From positions 1-29,112 of the forward strand of contig CAZQBY010000015.1 of assembly GCA_964592405.1 (NCBI GenBank): 29,112 bases of DNA, written 5' to 3'. Of this stretch, positions 3,646-27,259 are shown one piece after another. The DNA is from an uncultured archaeon (GTDB lineage: Archaea > Altiarchaeota > Altiarchaeia > JAFGQM01). The notes beneath the pieces were generated by a model. That model searched no databases. It had not been told where the DNA came from and was given only the letters and a program-made list of their open reading frames with translations. Both the position numbers and the translations under genes were made by a program. Positions within the stretch are counted from its first letter, which is position 1. Every line of letters starts with the position of its first letter.

Positions 3646-4785
3646 TTATGAGAACAGCTTTCCAATGCGTTCAAGGGCCTCTATTATCTCGCTTGTAGAG
3701 ACTGAATAGGAACAACGGACGAAGCCCTCGCCACTTGGGCCAAAGACATTTCCCGGGACCAGAGCTACCTTGGCCTCTCTTATAAGCTTCTCTGCGAACT
3801 CCTCGGAGCCTAAGTTGGTCTTGGTTATGTTCGGGAATGCGTAGAATGCTCCCTTTGGCATGTGACAGCTTATACCCGGTATCTCATTCAGACCTCCAAC
3901 TAGCAGCTTTCTGCGCGCGTTATAGGTCTTGAGCATCTGGCGGATGCTCTCCCTGTCATCAAAGGCCGCCAGCATGGCGTGCTGGGAGGGGGTTGGTGCA
4001 CAGAGCATACAGTATTGGTGTATCTTATACATAGCTTCCATAAGCTCTCCCTTGGCAACAACATAGCCAATTCGCCAGCCAGTAGCCGCATAGGCCTTGG
4101 AGAAGCCATTCAGGGTTATGGTCCGCTCGGCCATTTCTGACAGAGAGGCGATGGAGACGTGCTCCCCCTCATAAATCAGCTTTTCATATATCTCATCCGA
4201 TATGACTATTAGATTATGCTTTATGGCAAAATCAGCTATGTCCTCCAGATCCGCCTTTGTTAGGACCGCGCCAGTCGGGTTATTGGGAGAGCAAAGCAGG
4301 ATGGCCCTTGTCCTCTCTGTGAGTGCGTTTTCCATGTCCCTCACCTGCACCCTAAAATCGTTCTTCTCGTATGTTGGAACCATTACCGGCCTTCCACCTG
4401 CTAAGCGCGTCAGCGGACCATACGCCACATAGGCTGGGTCCGGAATAAGTACCTCATCACCGATGTCGATAACCGCACGTAATGCAAGGTCCAACCCCTC
4501 GCTGGATCCACTGGTTATGAGGATTTCATCAGAGGAAACATCAATGCGGTTTTCCCTCCTAAGCTTTTCAGATACACGCTCCCTCAGCTCAAGCAATCCT
4601 GCATTGCTTGTATAGTGTGTCTTGTTCAGTTCTATAGCCCGCAGTCCGGCATCCCTGATCCCGTAGGGGGTGTCAAAATCTGGTTCACCAACACCCAGAG
4701 TAACTATGTCCGGTTCCTTGGATGCTAGCTCAAAAAATCTCCGGATTCCCGAGGGAGGCAGCTCCTTGACACGCTTTGATACCAT
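3646..4785 (-). CDS. PLP-dependent aminotransferase class I/II (YugH/AlaT-like)
   Basis: LGVGEPDF, SPNNPTG, SDEIYE and NGFSKAYAATGWRIGY (PLP lysine) motifs. Start moved to ATG 4785 (MVSKRV) to remove the overlap with the Lrp gene. Confidence 0.9.
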   Translation of the reverse strand: MVSKRVKELPPSGIRRFFELASKEPDIVTLGVGEPDFDTPYGIRDAGLRAIELNKTHYTSNAGLLELRERVSEKLRRENRIDVSSDEILITSGSSEGLDLALRAVIDIGDEVLIPDPAYVAYGPLTRLAGGRPVMVPTYEKNDFRVQVRDMENALTERTRAILLCSPNNPTGAVLTKADLEDIADFAIKHNLIVISDEIYEKLIYEGEHVSIASLSEMAERTITLNGFSKAYAATGWRIGYVVAKGELMEAMYKIHQYCMLCAPTPSQHAMLAAFDDRESIRQMLKTYNARRKLLVGGLNEIPGISCHMPKGAFYAFPNITKTNLGSEEFAEKLIREAKVALVPGNVFGPSGEGFVRCSYSVSTSEIIEALERIGKLFS

Positions 4786-20355: not shown

Positions 20356-21573
20356 ATGCAAATAATAGAGGTCTATCTAGCCCCGGGAGAGGGAGACGCA
20401 GCTGTAAGAATACTCAGGGATCTGGGAATAAAAGACTTCAATCTTGTAAAAACAGAAACAAGTGATTTGCTTACCATTAAACATCCCCTTGATAAGGCCG
20501 ATCAGATTATTGATAACCTCAGGCAGGAGTTTGACTTCGACGCTGATAATCGCCGGAGCATAGTGGTTTCTAGGCCGGATGCCATCTATCCACGAGAAAA
20601 AGAAAAAGAGAAAAAAAGTCATGAAAGATATGCGAGGGAGTGTATAATTGAGTATGCTGAAGAGAATGCCACTCTGAGTTCAAAATATCTAGCCCTCATA
20701 TTCTTTTCGGCTGTAATAGCAACACTTGGCTTACTTACAAACAATACGGCTGTTGTTGTTGGGGCCATGATAATAGCTCCGGCTTTTGGTCCGATAGCAA
20801 GTGTGGCTGTGGGGGCAGTTGTCAACCGCATGGATTTACTCAAGGCAGGGATAAAGACCGAGATTATTGGGGTATTACTGGCAGTGACAACAGCAGCCAT
20901 TATGGGGCTTATGTTACCGGGTGTTGAATTGACCCCTGCACTCCAGCAGAGAATGCTGCCAACCATATATGACCTGTTGATCGGGCTTGCTGCTGGAGCA
21001 GCCGGTGGTTATGTTCTGGTCAGCGGTAAGGGCTCAACAATTGTTGGGGTCATGGTCGCTGCCGCACTTCTGCCGGTGATGTGTGGGATAGGACTCGGAG
21101 TTTTCTTCCTTAACCCATTCATCGTATTCGGCGGGTTTCTGTTATTGTTGATAACAGTGCTTTCAATAATCCTCTCGATGGTAGTTGTATTCTGGTTTGT
21201 GGGCCCGCAGAGAGAACACATACACCTAGCCTATGACTATCATCTCACACAGAAGACCGTAGGACTGGTTTTAAAATATGCACTTGTACTCATGGTGATA
21301 CTCACGATTCCACTGATATGGCTGACGTATGAGAACTTTGCGAGAACTGCCCCCGGGAGAGAGATAAGCAAGATATTTCATGAGAACCAATACAGGACCA
21401 TTGGGCTTGGCTCGGTCTCAATAGAGGGTAATCTGATTCGCGTCTTCATTTATGATTTTGGTAATGGGGACGAGACAATTCTGCGAGATCTTTACATGAA
21501 GATCAAGCAAAGGATAGACCCCCGATATGACCTTGAGTTTAATGTCATCAGGACAGAGAGAAATGTATATTGA
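20356..21573 (+). CDS. TIGR00341/DUF389-family membrane protein
   Basis: IATLGLLTNNTAVVVGAMIIAP and IVGVMVAAALLP motifs; soluble N-terminal domain and multiple TMs. Confidence 0.85.
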   Translation: MQIIEVYLAPGEGDAAVRILRDLGIKDFNLVKTETSDLLTIKHPLDKADQIIDNLRQEFDFDADNRRSIVVSRPDAIYPREKEKEKKSHERYARECIIEYAEENATLSSKYLALIFFSAVIATLGLLTNNTAVVVGAMIIAPAFGPIASVAVGAVVNRMDLLKAGIKTEIIGVLLAVTTAAIMGLMLPGVELTPALQQRMLPTIYDLLIGLAAGAAGGYVLVSGKGSTIVGVMVAAALLPVMCGIGLGVFFLNPFIVFGGFLLLLITVLSIILSMVVVFWFVGPQREHIHLAYDYHLTQKTVGLVLKYALVLMVILTIPLIWLTYENFARTAPGREISKIFHENQYRTIGLGSVSIEGNLIRVFIYDFGNGDETILRDLYMKIKQRIDPRYDLEFNVIRTERNVY

Positions 21574-21601
21574 TATTTGAATTGTATATTGATATTTGAA
21601 T
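21564..21601 (+). repeat. Perfect 19-bp tandem duplication spanning the DUF389 stop codon
   Basis: TGTATATTGATATTTGAAT at 21564-21582 and 21583-21601. Confidence 0.9.
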
Positions 21602-21635
21602 TTTGAATTCAGGTAAATGGATATCAGGTATATCG

Positions 21636-23192
21636 CTACTCAATCAGGAAAGGGTTGCTCTTTTGCATCAGTTTCACTGCATATCTAAGTTTCACCACGG
21701 TTTGTGAATAGATCGTGAATAGTAGCTCCCCGGCAGATACCTTGTCCCCAACCTTCTTTTCCAATAATATTCCTGCTCTGGGGTCCTTGGGTGCGCCAGC
21801 AGTCCTTGCGATAGTCGAGATAAGCATGTTATCGATCCTGCTCACCCTGCCGCCAGTTTTGGAAAATACATGCTGTCTGTACCTCCCCGGTCTGAGCTCA
21901 TCGGGCTTGATATGGGGATTCCCACCCTGAACATTTATTATTTCCTGCATCTTCTGCTTGGCCCTTCCCTCCTCCAAGCATCTCCTGGCCTCTTTAGCCC
22001 CTTTTCCTTTTGAACTCATACCACAAAATTCCATCAGCTCACCAACCATCATAACGCTTTTATCCACCAGGTCTTTTGGACCCTCACCATCCAATGCCAT
22101 CAGTATATCCCTGGCTTCAAGAACCGGTCCGATGCCATTGCCTATGGGCTGGGTGCCGTCGGTAAGCAGATATTTCAATTTCATACCAACTTCTCCAGCC
22201 AACCAGACAAATTTTTTTCCCAATTCCCTTGCGCCCTTTCTTGTCTGTATCTTTGCACCCCTGCCATATGGTATGTCCACTAGGACATAGTTGCTACCAA
22301 CGCTCTTTTTCTTTGAGATTATGCTTGCAAGGACCTGCCCCTCTGAATCTATTGAGAGTGGATATTCTACACGTATTATCTTGTCGTCTGCAGGAGCCAA
22401 ATTTATGGCACCCCCCCAGACTATACAGCCACCAACCTTGTTAACAAATCTCCTGATATCCCGTGCCTGATATGATACGTTGGCAAGGACCTCCATAGTG
22501 TCTGCAGTCCCGGAAGGTGATGTTATTGCGCGAGAAGAGGTTTTTGGTATCTTCAGGCCTAGGGCTGCCAGCATGGGGACTATCATCATGGTGGTCCTGT
22601 TGCCGGGAACACCACCGATACAGTGTTTGTCAACCACAATTCCATCAAAGTCCAGTTTCTCGCCAGTATCTACCATAGCCATGGTGAGGGATACTGTCTC
22701 TCTTTTAGTGAACCCGTAGATCGCAGAGGCCGTCACAAAGGATGTGAGCTCGATGTCACTCAGATTGTCATACACAATATCTCTGGTTATGGCATATATC
22801 TCATCCCTCGAGAGCTCACAACCATCTATTTTCTTTCGGATGTAACTGACGGATTCTGGCTTCTCCCTTGGAGTTACAAAAACTGTCGAACGTGAGTTGA
22901 GCTTCATGCTTTTGGCTAGGTCATTGAAGACCCCTATCTCGCCCTCTGCGACCATGGTGTCGGTGACATCAATTATTGCCACTCCCCCATAAGCCCCTCT
23001 CTTAGACTTTTTGAATATATAAGCTCTGTCGCCCATATGAATGGAGAGTCTTCTGGCATCATTCTCGTGCATCAGGGCTATGGACCGCCCTGCATCTATA
23101 TCTATTATCCTGACACTCAGCTTTTCTCCCAGCTGTGCTGTCCTTATTTTTTCAGCCAGCGGACCAATTCTCTCGTCATCAAACCTTGTCAT
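21636..23192 (-). CDS. AMP phosphorylase (thymidine phosphorylase family, archaeal NMP phosphorylase)
   Basis: DKHCIGGVPGNRTT, KTSSRAITSPSGTADTMEVL, APADD, QPIGNGIGP and IARTAGAPKD motifs, with the N-terminal extra domain; ATGA overlap with rbcL. Confidence 0.95.
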   Translation of the reverse strand: MTRFDDERIGPLAEKIRTAQLGEKLSVRIIDIDAGRSIALMHENDARRLSIHMGDRAYIFKKSKRGAYGGVAIIDVTDTMVAEGEIGVFNDLAKSMKLNSRSTVFVTPREKPESVSYIRKKIDGCELSRDEIYAITRDIVYDNLSDIELTSFVTASAIYGFTKRETVSLTMAMVDTGEKLDFDGIVVDKHCIGGVPGNRTTMMIVPMLAALGLKIPKTSSRAITSPSGTADTMEVLANVSYQARDIRRFVNKVGGCIVWGGAINLAPADDKIIRVEYPLSIDSEGQVLASIISKKKSVGSNYVLVDIPYGRGAKIQTRKGARELGKKFVWLAGEVGMKLKYLLTDGTQPIGNGIGPVLEARDILMALDGEGPKDLVDKSVMMVGELMEFCGMSSKGKGAKEARRCLEEGRAKQKMQEIINVQGGNPHIKPDELRPGRYRQHVFSKTGGRVSRIDNMLISTIARTAGAPKDPRAGILLEKKVGDKVSAGELLFTIYSQTVVKLRYAVKLMQKSNPFLIE

Positions 23193-24454
23193 ATTTTAGT
23201 CCCCCACTTATCCAAGGCAATTTTGAGTTCTTTATGTGTCTTTGCGTAATCCCTTAATGCAATACCCTTCACAACTGCTTCCACTGCCTGTCTCATACCT
23301 GCTGCACCTGCACGGGTTCCTTGTGGATGACCATGACAGCCACCACCTGCCTGTAATATGATATCCCTGCCCAGATATCTGACTATAGCTGGAACATGGC
23401 CCGGATGTAAACCTCCGGAGCAAACTGGGAAAACAGGCCTTAATCCATACCAGTCCTGCTCCAAAACATCACCATGGCCCTCTATAAATGGGTCCTGTAT
23501 CTCCCTGCCTGTGTCTATCACCTCCTGTTTGCCGCCCTGCATCTTGCCGACTATCGTTCCTATATGCAGCTGATCCAAGCCAATAAGTCTTATTATCTTG
23601 GCAAGGGTCAGCATAGTCATACCATGTTTTTTGTTGCGTGTCAACATCGCATGTCCGGCCCGATGGGCATGGATTACCAGGTCTAAATCCGCATTTCTCA
23701 GGGTCTGGAGAGCAGAGAAGCCACATGTCACTATATCAACCATTACGTATTCCCCACCCTGCTCCTTTACAAATTCGGCTCTTCTTAGCATCTCCGTAGT
23801 CTCAGCCGTGACATTTGGCATATACATCTTCCTCTCGCCAGTTTTGTCTTCTGCCTTATTGCGTAGTTTCAGGGTCTCCTTTACCCTTCTTTCAAATGGA
23901 TTAAATCTCTGGCTTGTGAGGTTTTCGTCATCCTTGACTATATCTAAACCACCCATCCAGGCTTCATAAGCGACTCTTGCATGATTCTTATAGTCCAGAC
24001 CAACCTTGGGCTTTACGATAGTGCCGACCAGCGGACGATCATAAACCTTTAGCAGATCCCTTACTCCGGGTATTCCAAATTTCGGCCCCCTGAAGGATTT
24101 TACAGCCCTCATCGGGAAGCTTATGTCCAGAAGACGCAGATTTTTCACAGCCTTCATGCCAAAGATATTACCGGCTATGCTGGAGAGAATCTCAGCGATA
24201 TTGCCCAGCTCAAAGAGTGGTAGTGGGTAGGCTATGAGTGCTGTCTTCTTTTTCTCGTCTATCTCAAAGACCCGGGCCTGCAGCCAGTCCCTCGTCTCCT
24301 GCTTAAGTGTTGTCAGATCTGTCCAAGTGCCTATACTCGACTCCGCAGCTATGTGCCTGCATGCCTTTCTAAATGATATCCCATTTGGCTCTATATAATA
24401 TCTGCATATTATATCATCTCTTGACGGCCGATATTTCAAATCTACATAGGTCAT
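23189..24454 (-). CDS. rbcL: RuBisCO large subunit, form III
   Basis: AAESSIGTW, AGNIFGMK, KPKVGL, KDDE, HAHRAGHA, loop-6 VGKM, SGGLHPG and QAGGG motifs, so the catalytic set appears complete; start set at ATG 24454. Confidence 0.95.
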   Translation of the reverse strand: MTYVDLKYRPSRDDIICRYYIEPNGISFRKACRHIAAESSIGTWTDLTTLKQETRDWLQARVFEIDEKKKTALIAYPLPLFELGNIAEILSSIAGNIFGMKAVKNLRLLDISFPMRAVKSFRGPKFGIPGVRDLLKVYDRPLVGTIVKPKVGLDYKNHARVAYEAWMGGLDIVKDDENLTSQRFNPFERRVKETLKLRNKAEDKTGERKMYMPNVTAETTEMLRRAEFVKEQGGEYVMVDIVTCGFSALQTLRNADLDLVIHAHRAGHAMLTRNKKHGMTMLTLAKIIRLIGLDQLHIGTIVGKMQGGKQEVIDTGREIQDPFIEGHGDVLEQDWYGLRPVFPVCSGGLHPGHVPAIVRYLGRDIILQAGGGCHGHPQGTRAGAAGMRQAVEAVVKGIALRDYAKTHKELKIALDKWGTKI

Positions 24455-24456
24455 TT

Positions 24457-25119
24457 TTATTTGAGCATGTTCAGATAGTCTCCTATATCCTCTGCGGATA
24501 ATGAGCAACCTTTAAATTTCAGCGACCATAAGCATGCCTCAAGCAGTGCCTGCTTCTCACCGGAGAAATACTTCTCTAAAATGCCCTTCTCATAGGCGAC
24601 TGCAACAAGCTCGCTGGAGCGGATTATGGAGACACCTTGGCAGTATTTCTGGAATATTTTCCTGTGCTCATGATCCATGGTTACACCCCTATGCATTCTA
24701 TACTGCAGAAGCTCTTTCAAGTTGATGGGATCCTCTATCAAGAATCTGAGGGTTCTTTCATCAACCAAAAGAGTATCGCCGTTATTCGCCAAGGCAAGAG
24801 CCTCTGCCTCCCCTCTCTGGATTATTTTAAGAGGTTTATGCCGGGCATAATAAATGTTATTGGATAGATCCAGTATTTGGCTGACCTCATCCGGATCGGC
24901 TTTTTCAATTCTTAGAACTCCGTTTTTCACCAAGGCGCGAAACTTCAACGGTCCCATACGATGATGCTTCCCCTTCTCTGGATTGGTTATTATCTCGTCA
25001 TAAACTGTTTCGGTAATGATGAAATCCGCCAGTTCACTGAGCTCAACTAGTAAGGGCAGCATGCAGTTCATAGACATAGATATCAGCGAGCTGGAATCAC
25101 AGATAACCCTTTTTCTCAT
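24457..25119 (-). CDS. PIN-domain protein (putative ribonuclease, extended DUF3368-like)
   Basis: Acidic PIN set: D8 (VICDSSSLI), E42 (VYDEI), E104 (RGEAEALAL), D120/E121 (LLVDER). Confidence 0.75.
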   Translation of the reverse strand: MRKRVICDSSSLISMSMNCMLPLLVELSELADFIITETVYDEIITNPEKGKHHRMGPLKFRALVKNGVLRIEKADPDEVSQILDLSNNIYYARHKPLKIIQRGEAEALALANNGDTLLVDERTLRFLIEDPINLKELLQYRMHRGVTMDHEHRKIFQKYCQGVSIIRSSELVAVAYEKGILEKYFSGEKQALLEACLWSLKFKGCSLSAEDIGDYLNMLK

Positions 25120-25643
25120 CCGAATACCCTCCTTGCCACCTCCAACCTCTCAGCATTTTTTCCCATGCCATGAAACTCATGTATTTTGCTACCCCCAACA
25201 TAGTGGAGAACCTTCACAGGATCGGCACCTGTTAGCTCAGAAGCGCGTCGCAATGAAAATCCCTGTTCATAGAGTTTTGCGGCCTTTTTCACTCTGGCCT
25301 TTTCAATCACATTTTCAGCATAATTACCCTCCCTGGCATCCAGCTTTATTACCCGATCTTCTATGGCCTCCAGATGCCTTATTGTTTCCTCTTTTGGTCC
25401 CAGCCGAGCATCCATGAGGCGACTCTTTATATCATCATAAAACTTCTTTTCAAGGCCCTTATAGTGTGTTTTGGACATTATTTTGCTCAGGGCATAATCA
25501 ATCAGTGCCAACAGGATAAGCTCCCTATGGCCCTCTATGGCAGCCTCAGAAAGTGCCTTTGCAGAGACGGTCCTGAGTGCCAGCGCATCCCCCCGCTCAA
25601 TGGCATCTACTGAGTGACCAATCAGGGTCTTTATATCATCCAT
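25116..25643 (-). CDS. Hypothetical helical protein with a C-terminal HTH-like (UPF0175-like) motif
   Basis: KAAKLYEQGFSLRRASELTG resembles the UPF0175/HTH signature; ATGA overlap with the PIN gene. Confidence 0.7.
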   Translation of the reverse strand: MDDIKTLIGHSVDAIERGDALALRTVSAKALSEAAIEGHRELILLALIDYALSKIMSKTHYKGLEKKFYDDIKSRLMDARLGPKEETIRHLEAIEDRVIKLDAREGNYAENVIEKARVKKAAKLYEQGFSLRRASELTGADPVKVLHYVGGSKIHEFHGMGKNAERLEVARRVFG

Positions 25644-25649
25644 TTCGAC

Positions 25650-26537
25650 TCATTTGACCATATCCCAAGCAAATTTGTCCTTAAGGATTTCATATGCCAT
25701 GTATGGCGATATGATTCCATCCTCAGTTATTATAGCGTCTATGTATTCGGGCGGCGTGAAGTCAAATGCCGGATTCCACATCTTAACACCCCTCATCTTT
25801 GGACGTATTTCTGCTGTGTCCCTTTCCTCTATTGGTATCATCTCTCCCTCGTAGGTCTGTGGTGAGAATTTCAGAGTCTCACAAGCAACTAACACCGGCA
25901 CATTGGATTCCTTGGCAATGAGGGCTATCTGTGAGGTTCCTATCTTGTTGGCCACGGCACCATTTGCTGCGACAGTATCTGCACCTACAAATACCTTGTC
26001 AACATCAAATTCCTCCATGGCATAACGGACCGCCGAGTCTATTATAAGTGTCACAGGAATGCGCTTTCTGGCCATGAAGGCTGCAGTCAGATATCCCTGA
26101 TTTCGGGGGCGCGTCTCTGTGCATATGACATTTATCTTTTTCGTCTTGGCTGCCTCTGCAATTATTTCAAGAACTGCCGTAGAGTTGCAGTGTGTGAGGA
26201 GTGTATCTCCGGATTTTATTCTCTTGGATCCTATCTGCGCTATTCTCATCAAGGCGTCCTTTTGTTTTTGAATAAATGCATCTATCAGTTTGGGCATATG
26301 CTCCTGCGGGAATTCGTGTGAGAGATATGTGATATAATCCACGGCGTTTGGAAGTGAAACAGCTGTTGGGCGGGCCTTTTTCAGTATGTCTGCCTGCTTT
26401 TGGAAATCGCGGAGAAAGTTCTTTCCTTTGTATGCGGTAGCATAGTCCCTCAAAGCCTCAGCAGCGGTAAGGGCTATCTCAAGGGCTCCGCGGACCTCCA
26501 TTGATTTTATCTTTCGTGCAGCGGTCTTTGGGTCCAC
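25650..26537 (-). CDS. Ribose-1,5-bisphosphate isomerase (eIF-2B alpha/beta/delta family)
   Basis: VRGA, ARPTAVSLPNA, LTHCNS (catalytic Cys), ETRP, VGAD, NKIGT and NPAFDFTP motifs; operonic with rbcL and AMP phosphorylase. Confidence 0.93.
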   Translation of the reverse strand: MDPKTAARKIKSMEVRGALEIALTAAEALRDYATAYKGKNFLRDFQKQADILKKARPTAVSLPNAVDYITYLSHEFPQEHMPKLIDAFIQKQKDALMRIAQIGSKRIKSGDTLLTHCNSTAVLEIIAEAAKTKKINVICTETRPRNQGYLTAAFMARKRIPVTLIIDSAVRYAMEEFDVDKVFVGADTVAANGAVANKIGTSQIALIAKESNVPVLVACETLKFSPQTYEGEMIPIEERDTAEIRPKMRGVKMWNPAFDFTPPEYIDAIITEDGIISPYMAYEILKDKFAWDMVK

Positions 26538-26605
26538 TTTTACATAATTATGAAATGGCGGTAATAAACTTAATTTAATTTATCTGTCCTTTGTAAATAT
26601 CAGCG

Positions 26606-26629
26606 AGGTTAAAAATAAGGTTAAAAATA
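26606..26629 (+). repeat. 12-bp tandem duplication immediately before the ORF 26630 start
   Basis: AGGTTAAAAATA at 26606-26617 and 26618-26629. Confidence 0.8.
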
Positions 26630-27259
26630 ATGAAGAGGAGGAAGAAAAGGAAGGGGTGTAATACTGTCCCGGAGCCTGGAACACATGGCAGTAACATCAG
26701 GAAGCGGGGGGAAAGACTGCCATCTGTCAGTGAGATAAATCGCCTGGTTCGGAAGAGGGAGATCGAAGAGGAAACACTCATTCGCCTTAGGTTACTCAGA
26801 ATGCGGTCTGAGAGCGGTCATGCTTATGAGCATATGCGTCACATGTTGGAGATGGGGGACGTAAGAGAGAAGTCCAGAAGAGAGGCTGAGAAATGGAAGA
26901 GGGACATCTCCCGGACTGAAAAGGGATTGAAGAGGGATATTCGGAACTTGGATGAGGAGACCTCAGAGGATATAAAAATACTGGAAAAATCCCAACTGCC
27001 AATCTCCGAAGAACTAAAGAGGCTTAAGAGGATAAGGGCTCTCCTCGCTGAGGAAGAACGACGAATAGAACAGATGGAGAAGGGAATTCTGCCCGGAAAT
27101 GGCAAGAAAACCATCTCTCTGAACAGACAACAAAGGGCTTGGTTAAATAGCAGAAAGGCCCTTATAGATGGACAGATAAAGAAGATCGACACGTTTTTGA
27201 AGAGGATACAACGCACAAAAAAAGTACGGCCGGGGAAGAAGGGTGGCAAGAGGACTTAG
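26630..27259 (+). CDS. Hypothetical highly charged coiled-coil protein
   Basis: 209-aa ORF filling the gap between the R15P isomerase gene and purB; rich in K/R/E with basic termini; no recognisable motif. Confidence 0.6.
   Translation: MKRRKKRKGCNTVPEPGTHGSNIRKRGERLPSVSEINRLVRKREIEEETLIRLRLLRMRSESGHAYEHMRHMLEMGDVREKSRREAEKWKRDISRTEKGLKRDIRNLDEETSEDIKILEKSQLPISEELKRLKRIRALLAEEERRIEQMEKGILPGNGKKTISLNRQQRAWLNSRKALIDGQIKKIDTFLKRIQRTKKVRPGKKGGKRT

Follow-up and report, generated by a model that had tools for sequence, protein, structure and literature searches.

An enlarged PIN-domain protein and its helical partner encoded within the RuBisCO and AMP phosphorylase operon of an Altiarchaeia archaeon

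The operon and its genes

A 29,112-nucleotide (nt) stretch of DNA from an uncultured archaeon of the class Altiarchaeia (assembly GCA_964592405.1, contig CAZQBY010000015.1, positions 1 to 29,112; henceforth the window) contains two adjacent genes that are the subject of this analysis, one encoding an all-helical protein of 175 amino acids (aa) and the other a PIN-domain protein of 220 aa. The source genome comprises 1.13 Mb in 22 contigs and is 87% complete. In the open reading frame (ORF) listing of the window the two genes belong to a row of five on the minus strand (21636-26537), the other three encoding ribose-1,5-bisphosphate (R15P) isomerase, form III RuBisCO and AMP phosphorylase. In order of transcription, and headed by the intergenic region, the features are:

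26538..26629, no strand assigned: 92-nt divergent intergenic region with candidate promoter and operator elements, as read from the sequence
25650..26537, minus strand: R15P isomerase (e2b2 family), operon gene 1, GTG start, 295 aa (TIGR00511, PF01008)
25116..25643, minus strand: partner protein, all-helical, 175 aa (structure model, sub-threshold UPF0175)
24457..25119, minus strand: PIN-domain protein, putative nuclease, 220 aa (structure model, VIA, alignment)
23189..24454, minus strand: form III RuBisCO large subunit, ATG at 24454, 421 aa (TIGR03326)
21636..23192, minus strand: AMP phosphorylase, last gene of the operon, 518 aa (TIGR03327)

The ORF coordinates give junctions, in transcription order, of a 6-nt gap, a 4-nt overlap, a 2-nt gap and a 4-nt overlap, in agreement with a first-pass annotation that had described five co-oriented genes with these spacings and ATGA overlaps. 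The RuBisCO ORF is listed as 23189-24508 with a TTG start and 439 aa; its start was set at the ATG at 24454 because the family model and relatives support that position. The enzyme identities given in the same annotation hold, as all three flanking enzymes pass the equivalog cut-offs of curated NCBIfam models: R15P isomerase matches TIGR00511 with 342 bits (cut-off 314) and PF01008 at 3e-87, RuBisCO matches TIGR03326 with 591 bits (cut-off 497), and AMP phosphorylase matches TIGR03327 with 600 bits (cut-off 535). The row of R15P isomerase, 175-aa protein, 220-aa protein, RuBisCO where present, and AMP phosphorylase recurs in all seven other genomes of the window's family. RuBisCO lies between the PIN and AMP phosphorylase genes in five of the seven; in the other two (G006 and G007; loci L015 and L017) it lies outside the row, and the pair still stands between R15P isomerase and AMP phosphorylase. 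The five-gene arrangement is not due to chance.

The divergent intergenic region contains a TATA-like element, GTTTATTA, about 30 nt upstream of the GTG of the R15P isomerase gene; the interval that separates this element from the GTG holds a palindrome, CATAATTATG (within 26540-26555). A promoter alignment showed the TATA-like box and the TAATTA core also in the same-genus genome G002; their conservation is confined to the genus and does not extend across the whole family. On this reading of the sequence, GTTTATTA and CATAATTATG are candidates for promoter and operator, respectively.

A putative PIN-domain nuclease

The 220-aa protein returned no significant Pfam or NCBIfam match in our own scans, and searches of PDB sequences with both family profiles (PIN and partner) gave only chance-level rows. 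Its AlphaFold model has a mean predicted local distance difference test score (pLDDT) of 93.2. In an exhaustive structural search with VIA-align, the 40 best matches were all PIN domains, with Z scores from 10.9 to 6.5. The top match was 1y82 (Z 10.9, root-mean-square deviation (rmsd) 3.5, 142 residues aligned), and second came 2mdt, the COG2405 representative SSO1118 (Z 10.0, rmsd 2.8, 118 of 119 residues aligned), whose score is tied with those of other VapC-type PIN proteins. Many VapC toxins, Nob1 (Z 8.9) and the Aquifex protein-only RNase P HARP (7f3e, Z 8.5) were among the further matches. Foldseek returned weak PIN rows only, the best of them Nob1 (E 4e-3).

The model consists of a PIN core, a helical insert (about residues 122-160) and a C-terminal helical extension. 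Across 34 aligned homologues, with identities down to 31%, six acidic residues (D8, E42, E104, E106, D120 and E121) do not vary, and neither do R167, S168, K201, G204 and C205; N87, R125 and E129 are also kept. With the modelled fold and the conserved acidic residues both present, the 220-aa protein is assigned to the PIN domain-like superfamily, and the intact acidic set seen in the first-pass annotation is borne out.

The helical partner

The 175-aa protein is all-helical in its model (pLDDT 84), in which an N-terminal helical bundle (about residues 1-105) is followed by a C-terminal UPF0175-like helix-turn-helix (HTH) segment and a terminal helix. Its UPF0175 match is sub-threshold (residues 110-155, E 0.027). 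For this reason the label "HTH-like", under which the protein had first been described, is plausible only, while its helical character stands. In the N-terminal bundle, Y50, K54 and D102 are invariant and R24, K58 and H60 nearly so.

Searches with the 175-aa protein were otherwise uninformative. Our Pfam and NCBIfam scans gave no significant match, Foldseek found nothing at E≤0.001, PADLOC gave no match, and a wide VIA search returned generic helical bundles that cover residues 1-106 only and, at Z≤8.8, fall below the bar for helical proteins. The family nevertheless comprises 752 representative clusters at E≤0.001 in a library of 1.84 billion proteins, with members typically of 175-192 aa. 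None of these 752 clusters has a significant Pfam match in our own scans, and in the Protein Atlas the partner clusters are named "hypothetical protein" and have no common Pfam family.

Evidence for a complex

Structure prediction places the two proteins in a complex with an ipSAE of 0.87, against 0.02 for the best control. In calibration, 116 of 157 solved complexes attained this mark, as did 2 of 215 mismatched pairs. Agreement of contacts between runs is at least 86%, and the partner has a pLDDT of at least 83. In the model, partner residues 125-175 pack against PIN residues 42, 103-104 and 120-124, that is, the acidic pocket. The prediction supports binding of the 175-aa protein to the PIN protein over this pocket.

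The gene arrangement points in the same direction. A scan that took a single genome for each species yielded 150 PIN relatives, and neighbourhoods were read at the best 80 loci. Both genes were called at 55 of these; at 52 of them the partner gene is co-oriented with the PIN gene and no more than 220 nt upstream of it, and the identical 4-nt overlap occurs in 31. One locus (L115) carries a fused ORF of 409 aa, with the partner domain at residues 8-176 and the PIN domain at 189-408, and among the best 150 partner-family representatives (of the 752 clusters) five are fusions of 380-430 aa with the partner N-terminal and the PIN domain C-terminal. These natural fusions lend independent support to binding of partner and PIN protein.

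Three further long frames deserve mention. Two Nanoarchaeota genomes have frames of 448 and 442 aa around the PIN match (G118:C4:42981-43655 and G129:C12:40361-41032, respectively), which are probably further partner-PIN fusions. A 347-aa frame at L043:3867-4910 covers a partner homologue (match 3850-4308) and continues for about 200 residues; it may be another fusion or a sequencing error.

Distribution, inheritance and gene neighbourhood

The best 80 loci carry mostly Woese-, Pace-, Micr-, Iain-, Parv- and Undinarchaeota labels. In the genome samples examined, with phylum taken from the record label, the PIN gene is present in 81 of 121 Nanoarchaeota, 43 of 101 Micrarchaeota and 29 of 61 genomes of the class Altiarchaeia. 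It is single-copy in 152 of the 153 positive genomes (80/81, 43/43 and 29/29, respectively). The PIN tree clusters by phylum label, with 12 changes against a shuffled mean of 23.4, a value matched by none of 200 shuffles.

Within the class, the partner gene is found in 33 genomes and the PIN gene in 29, and 28 of the 29 PIN-bearing genomes have both. Outside the window's family, in about 20 genomes, the two genes are unlinked yet co-retained. There the PIN homologue, a protein of 217 aa with about 40% identity, is encoded without a partner gene beside it and has TBP, SMC or NikR nearby, and the partner homologue has about 30% identity and 165 aa. A search with the partner-family profile found nothing within 3.5 kb of the PIN gene at 12 loci of other Altiarchaeia families (best E 0.72).

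Among the DPANN archaea, recurrent neighbours of the pair are XPF, SMC, OapB/OapC with a GTPase, FEN1, XPD and Rpb7; 15 of the 80 loci include SMC. Of the 43 Micrarchaeota that carry the PIN gene, 35 have XPF (ERCC4) immediately downstream of it (e.g. G216:C3:1461-2530), and the partner-PIN-XPF row is specific to that phylum. In Woesearchaeota-labelled loci, genes for a GTPase and the origin-associated proteins OapB and OapC lie directly upstream of the pair (e.g. L092:3617-5033); the GTPase, OapB and OapC clusters cover 10, 9 and 11 loci, respectively.

A proposed domesticated nuclease-partner complex

We propose, with a probability of about 0.6, that the two genes encode a domesticated, enlarged PIN nuclease-partner complex of the COG2405/UPF0175 type, located within this operon in a single family. 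It probably descends from COG2405/UPF0175 pairs, given that, in the part of the study covered here, COG2405 PIN proteins are the only context reported for UPF0175 proteins (Matelska et al. 2017, PMC5499597), that 2mdt is a close structural match, and that PF11848 is the label carried by most homologues in precomputed annotations and by about 75% of members in the Atlas clusters. The likeness of the pair to UPF0175/PIN modules, remarked on from the sequence, is thereby upheld.

Transcription of the five genes would start from the TATA-like GTTTATTA, with CATAATTATG as a possible operator. The ATGA overlap would couple translation of the partner to that of the PIN protein, and we propose that this coupling leads to both being made in equal amounts. 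The two proteins would then associate in a stable heterocomplex, with the HTH-like segment and the terminal helix at the C-terminus of the partner predicted to cover the acidic pocket. In this position the partner may gate the metal site of the PIN protein or supply access for the substrate. From what is known of the family, the PIN protein itself would be a Mg/Mn-dependent endonuclease, its substrate most likely being RNA. As to the order of events, the partner gene would already have stood directly after the R15P isomerase gene in the Altiarchaeia lineage, and RuBisCO and AMP phosphorylase would have been added downstream of the R15P isomerase-175-PIN row in the window's family. We propose that it is through this addition that the pair is now co-transcribed with the salvage enzymes. 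A functional tie of the pair to nucleotide salvage is possible.

Several points weigh against this proposal. In our own hmmscan, PF11848 matched neither the window protein nor any of 34 family members at E≤1, and UPF0175 was matched weakly by 5 of 25 partner-family members (best E 0.0079), all below the cut-off; because of these results, descent from COG2405/UPF0175 pairs is not proven. Resemblance to VapBC complexes that have been solved may account for part of the complex score. The tight operon in 7/7 other family genomes fits a link to the AMP pathway, as do two further observations: at 14 of 20 loci from other families of the class the R15P isomerase gene is immediately followed by the partner gene, and the raw co-occurrence of the PIN gene with AMP phosphorylase is strong in Nanoarchaeota and Micrarchaeota and absent in the class. 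Finally, the phylogenetic control applied to that co-occurrence covers Micrarchaeota only, and it rests on a quick single-gene XPF tree of 232 columns in which 42 of 91 inner branches are unsupported and several branches are long.

Relationship to the AMP pathway

The first-pass annotation had gone further and taken the pair to be dedicated to the AMP/pentose-bisphosphate pathway, either as a regulated RNase supplying RNA for conversion to nucleoside monophosphates (NMPs) and RuBisCO-dependent salvage, or as a nucleotide-sensing regulator of the operon. We regard such a dedicated role as unlikely, although a good deal speaks for it. The pair sits at overlapping or 2-nt junctions within the family's operon, and it remains between R15P isomerase and AMP phosphorylase in the two genomes from whose row RuBisCO is missing. 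The isomerases that precede the partner gene in other Altiarchaeia families appear to be true R15P isomerases, as five of six scanned pass TIGR00511. In those families the partner homologue also directly precedes a PsmA-SBDS-Rrp4-Rrp41(-Rrp42) row, checked with Pfam in three loci, and most remaining loci have ORFs whose size and order match that row.

R15P isomerase and the 165-aa partner thus head an exosome/proteasome row, with its RNA-decay genes, at L032-L051 (e.g. L042:4067-8501 and L044:1239-6373). A NUDIX gene is interposed in two such loci, and in one a MazG gene follows. In the window's genome the exosome row is on a different contig. The adjacency of a nucleotide-salvage gene to RNA-decay genes may be meaningful.

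Co-occurrence gives a more uneven picture. The PIN gene is present in 64 of 73 AMP phosphorylase-bearing Nanoarchaeota and in 17 of 48 that lack the enzyme (both, PIN only, AMP phosphorylase only, neither: 64, 17, 9, 31). The corresponding figures are 41 of 54 against 2 of 47 in Micrarchaeota (41, 2, 13, 45), and 25 of 55 and 4 of 6 in the class (25, 4, 30, 2), where the PIN gene is therefore no commoner alongside the enzyme. RuBisCO is present in 52 and AMP phosphorylase in 55 of the 61 class genomes, and outside the window's family these two genes and that for R15P isomerase are dispersed, on different contigs or far apart. Neither the pathway nor the pair depends on the other for its presence: the pathway is found without the pair in many genomes of Altiarchaeia and Micrarchaeota, and in the class this extends to whole genera, for example g10 (pair 0/5, RuBisCO 5/5, AMP phosphorylase 5/5); 17 of 81 PIN-bearing Nanoarchaeota lack AMP phosphorylase. 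Among the best 80 loci, R15P isomerase or AMP phosphorylase adjoins the pair only in the window's own family; the one near-exception, L079, has RuBisCO about 0.8 kb away on the opposite strand.

In Micrarchaeota the association was set against a tree of XPF proteins. XPF, of similar gene length, was detected in 94 of the 101 genomes; these include 52 of the 58 without a PIN gene, so the PIN absences are not an assembly artefact. In the tree built from these 94 XPF proteins, the genomes with a PIN gene fall into what is essentially a single clade (42 rows), and AMP phosphorylase occurs without the PIN gene in at least two separate clades. The PIN gene changes 6 times and AMP phosphorylase 7 times, leaving from 3 (well supported) to 6 independent contrasts and a sign test of p = 1. 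PIN endonucleases, moreover, are not known to release mononucleotides themselves.

Profiling of neighbourhoods and of phyletic patterns thus divides: the adjacency of R15P isomerase and partner and the raw co-occurrence favour a pathway link, while the DPANN neighbourhoods and the Micrarchaeota tree do not. The tree test takes away the apparent statistical support for the link in Micrarchaeota and leaves the link itself possible. The operon and the R15P isomerase-partner adjacency are probably each a single evolutionary event within one class. That the pair is a component of the pathway is unproven, as neither neighbourhood nor the Micrarchaeota tree gives an association with pathway genes beyond one lineage, and the claim of dedication to the AMP/RuBisCO pathway is not sustained.

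A broader version of the idea, which we advance only speculatively and hold to be rather improbable, is that nucleic-acid scavenging in DPANN and Altiarchaeota has the pair as its "front end", a nuclease under regulation. The N-terminal bundle of the partner would sense a nucleotide or sugar-phosphate signal and release the PIN nuclease, which would open RNA for the exosome or other RNases; the products would feed AMP phosphorylase, R15P isomerase and RuBisCO. Such a role would explain the operon of the window's family, the R15P isomerase-partner-exosome row in sister families and, for two DPANN phyla, the raw association of the PIN gene with AMP phosphorylase.

Other explanations

The DPANN neighbourhoods described above raise a different prospect, namely that the pair is a nuclease complex for DNA repair or chromosome maintenance and that its position in the RuBisCO operon is an accident of gene order. 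The XPF gene downstream in 35 of 43 PIN-bearing Micrarchaeota, SMC in 15 of 80 loci and the recurrence of FEN1, XPD helicase and OapB/OapC would be in keeping with this, and SMC lies near the PIN gene in Altiarchaeia too. The neighbours vary by phylum, however, as inherited synteny would predict, XPF is also present in 52 of the 58 PIN-lacking Micrarchaeota, and the partner is the sole neighbour common to all phyla. The closest structural relatives of the PIN protein are VapC-type and RNA-processing PIN proteins rather than FEN-type 5' nucleases. We consider a DNA-repair role improbable.

Less probable again is an ordinary mobile type II toxin-antitoxin (TA) system of the VapBC kind inserted into the operon by chance. 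The layout does recall one, with a small upstream gene overlapping the PIN gene by 4 nt and a partner predicted to lie over the active site in the manner of VapB antitoxins, and the kinship with COG2405/UPF0175 pairs, described as potential TA systems in the part of that study covered (PMC5499597), points the same way. PADLOC also gave a weak PDC-S70 match (E 2e-5) over the N-terminal half of the PIN protein. Both proteins, however, are far longer than the aligned PIN toxins of 119-155 residues, as had been observed of VapB and VapC at the outset, and the gene reaches near-core frequency in two DPANN phyla. Because the genes are single-copy, follow taxonomy in their tree, have housekeeping flanks throughout, are co-retained when separated and occur as natural "toxin"-"antitoxin" fusions, the pair is not a passenger mobile TA system, as the first-pass annotation had also held; it is an old module, mostly of vertical descent, across DPANN and Altiarchaeota.

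It is equally hard to credit that the PIN protein is a housekeeping RNA-processing endonuclease standing in for Nob1 or RNase P in reduced genomes: its structural matches to Nob1 (also the best Foldseek row) and to the Aquifex protein-only RNase P, and the failure to find PIN_6 in four of five pair-carrying DPANN genomes, are outweighed by the absence of the 220-aa PIN gene from 58 of 101 Micrarchaeota and 32 of 61 class genomes, together with the results that follow. Replacement of RNase P by a HARP-like protein was rejected, as PIN_5 (PF08745) had no match in Pfam scans of the window protein and 34 family members, an RNase P RNA is encoded in the window's genome (133 bits; gathering score 84), and a Z of 8.5 to 7f3e is unexceptional among PIN proteins. 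Replacement of Nob1 was likewise rejected, as the window's genome has its own separate PIN_6 gene (contig C6, 61.6 bits) and there is no complementary pattern of PIN_6 and the 220-aa PIN gene, PIN_6 going undetected at the cut-off in all 101 Micrarchaeota with or without that gene. Within the PIN family, PIN_6 is touched by 2 of 34 members (E 0.021).

The search for PIN_6 yielded an observation in its own right. At the cut-off it was found in 0 of 101 Micrarchaeota and was not found in four of five other DPANN genomes (G061-G064, one of them a closed chromosome), whereas 4/4 control archaea were positive. The Nob1-type PIN_6 protein of those DPANN is either very divergent or missing.

Other features of the window

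Elsewhere the window carries housekeeping genes, among them those for Lhr helicase, a topoisomerase, TYW2/3, TyrRS and aRF1, with purB and purS on the divergent side. The divergent gene itself (26630-27259, plus strand) encodes a very basic, K/R/E-rich protein of 209 aa with no Pfam or PADLOC match. A perfect tandem repeat, two copies of AGGTTAAAAATA at 26606-26629, lies directly upstream of its ATG and is not conserved in the same-genus genome. The 209-aa gene is followed by adenylosuccinate lyase (purB) and purS, so that purine-synthesis genes face the salvage operon. At the other end of the operon, a 19-nt tandem repeat, GAAATGTATATTGATATTT (21560-21602, two copies and a partial third), sits between the AMP phosphorylase stop codon and the end of a convergent DUF389 gene.

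In the two family genomes whose RuBisCO is displaced, the only RuBisCO-like genes are G006:C15:3-1118 and G007:C69:24036-25316, which score 329 and 405 bits against the form III cut-off of 497, the G006 match being clipped by the contig end. They may represent another form of RuBisCO.

Wider meaning

DPANN and Altiarchaeota have small genomes (about 1 Mb), and for a large proportion of the genes conserved in them no role is known. The pair analysed here looks like a TA-type module that has turned into a stable, inherited two-subunit nuclease, sometimes made as one chain. If it does link the breakdown of RNA to RuBisCO-dependent nucleotide salvage, it would supply a missing entry step for the nucleic-acid-scavenging lifestyle proposed for these organisms; otherwise, it remains a clearly delimited candidate for functional assignment among gene pairs that are widespread in archaea. 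The case also carries a caution, in that neither the striking operon nor the raw co-occurrence, with its odds ratio of about 70, amounted to more than a handful of evolutionary events when phylogeny was considered.

Comparison with known systems

Gene sets of the AMP pathway have been described in the candidate phyla radiation (CPR) and DPANN (PMC5113843, PMC7414124). As in the archaeal sets, AMP phosphorylase, R15P isomerase and form III RuBisCO are all present here, and in the window's family they are clustered. The descriptions differ from the window in that the portions of those two papers covered mention no nuclease or HTH gene among the enzymes. In the literature covered, which did not extend to supplementary arCOG and protein-family tables, we found no description of the pair or of a nuclease gene inside an AMP-pathway cluster.

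HARP has been discussed, in the part of the source covered, as a PIN protein possibly repurposed from a TA toxin (PMC6380272). Like Aquifex HARP (PIN_5, 7f3e), the window protein is a PIN protein of about 190-220 aa with helical additions, encoded by a chromosomal, housekeeping-type gene, and the two align with a Z of 8.5 over 139 residues. Unlike HARP, it has no PIN_5 match, its genome keeps an RNase P RNA, and it has a putative obligate partner.

The likeness to VapBC complexes (6sd6, 3zvk, 5x3t) lies in the PIN fold (Z 9.9-9.2) and in a partner chain that, in the model, reaches the acidic pocket. Unlike VapBC, the window pair bears no sign of mobility or multiplicity. The partners also differ in construction: VapB has an N-terminal DNA-binding domain and a disordered C-terminal inhibitory tail, whereas here the HTH-like part is predicted to form the contact surface and the N-terminal bundle is extra.

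The closest known systems are the pairs of COG2405 (DUF3368/PF11848) and UPF0175 (PF03683) proteins, which are candidate type II TA pairs of the VapC group according to the part of the survey covered (PMC5499597). The window pair shares with them a PIN fold with its acidic set and 2mdt as second-best structural match, an upstream co-oriented partner with a weak UPF0175-like HTH, a 4-nt overlap and a partner predicted to sit on the active site; its homologues and Atlas clusters are labelled PF11848, though our own scan found that family in 0/34. Unlike COG2405 proteins, which have about 120-150 aa, the window PIN protein has 220 aa, with a helical insert and a C-terminal extension that contains the invariant K201, G204 and C205. 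Unlike UPF0175 proteins, the window partner has 175 aa and an additional N-terminal helical bundle. Finally, the window pair differs from COG2405/UPF0175 pairs in being single-copy, tracking taxonomy, near-core in DPANN, sometimes fused and sometimes unlinked.

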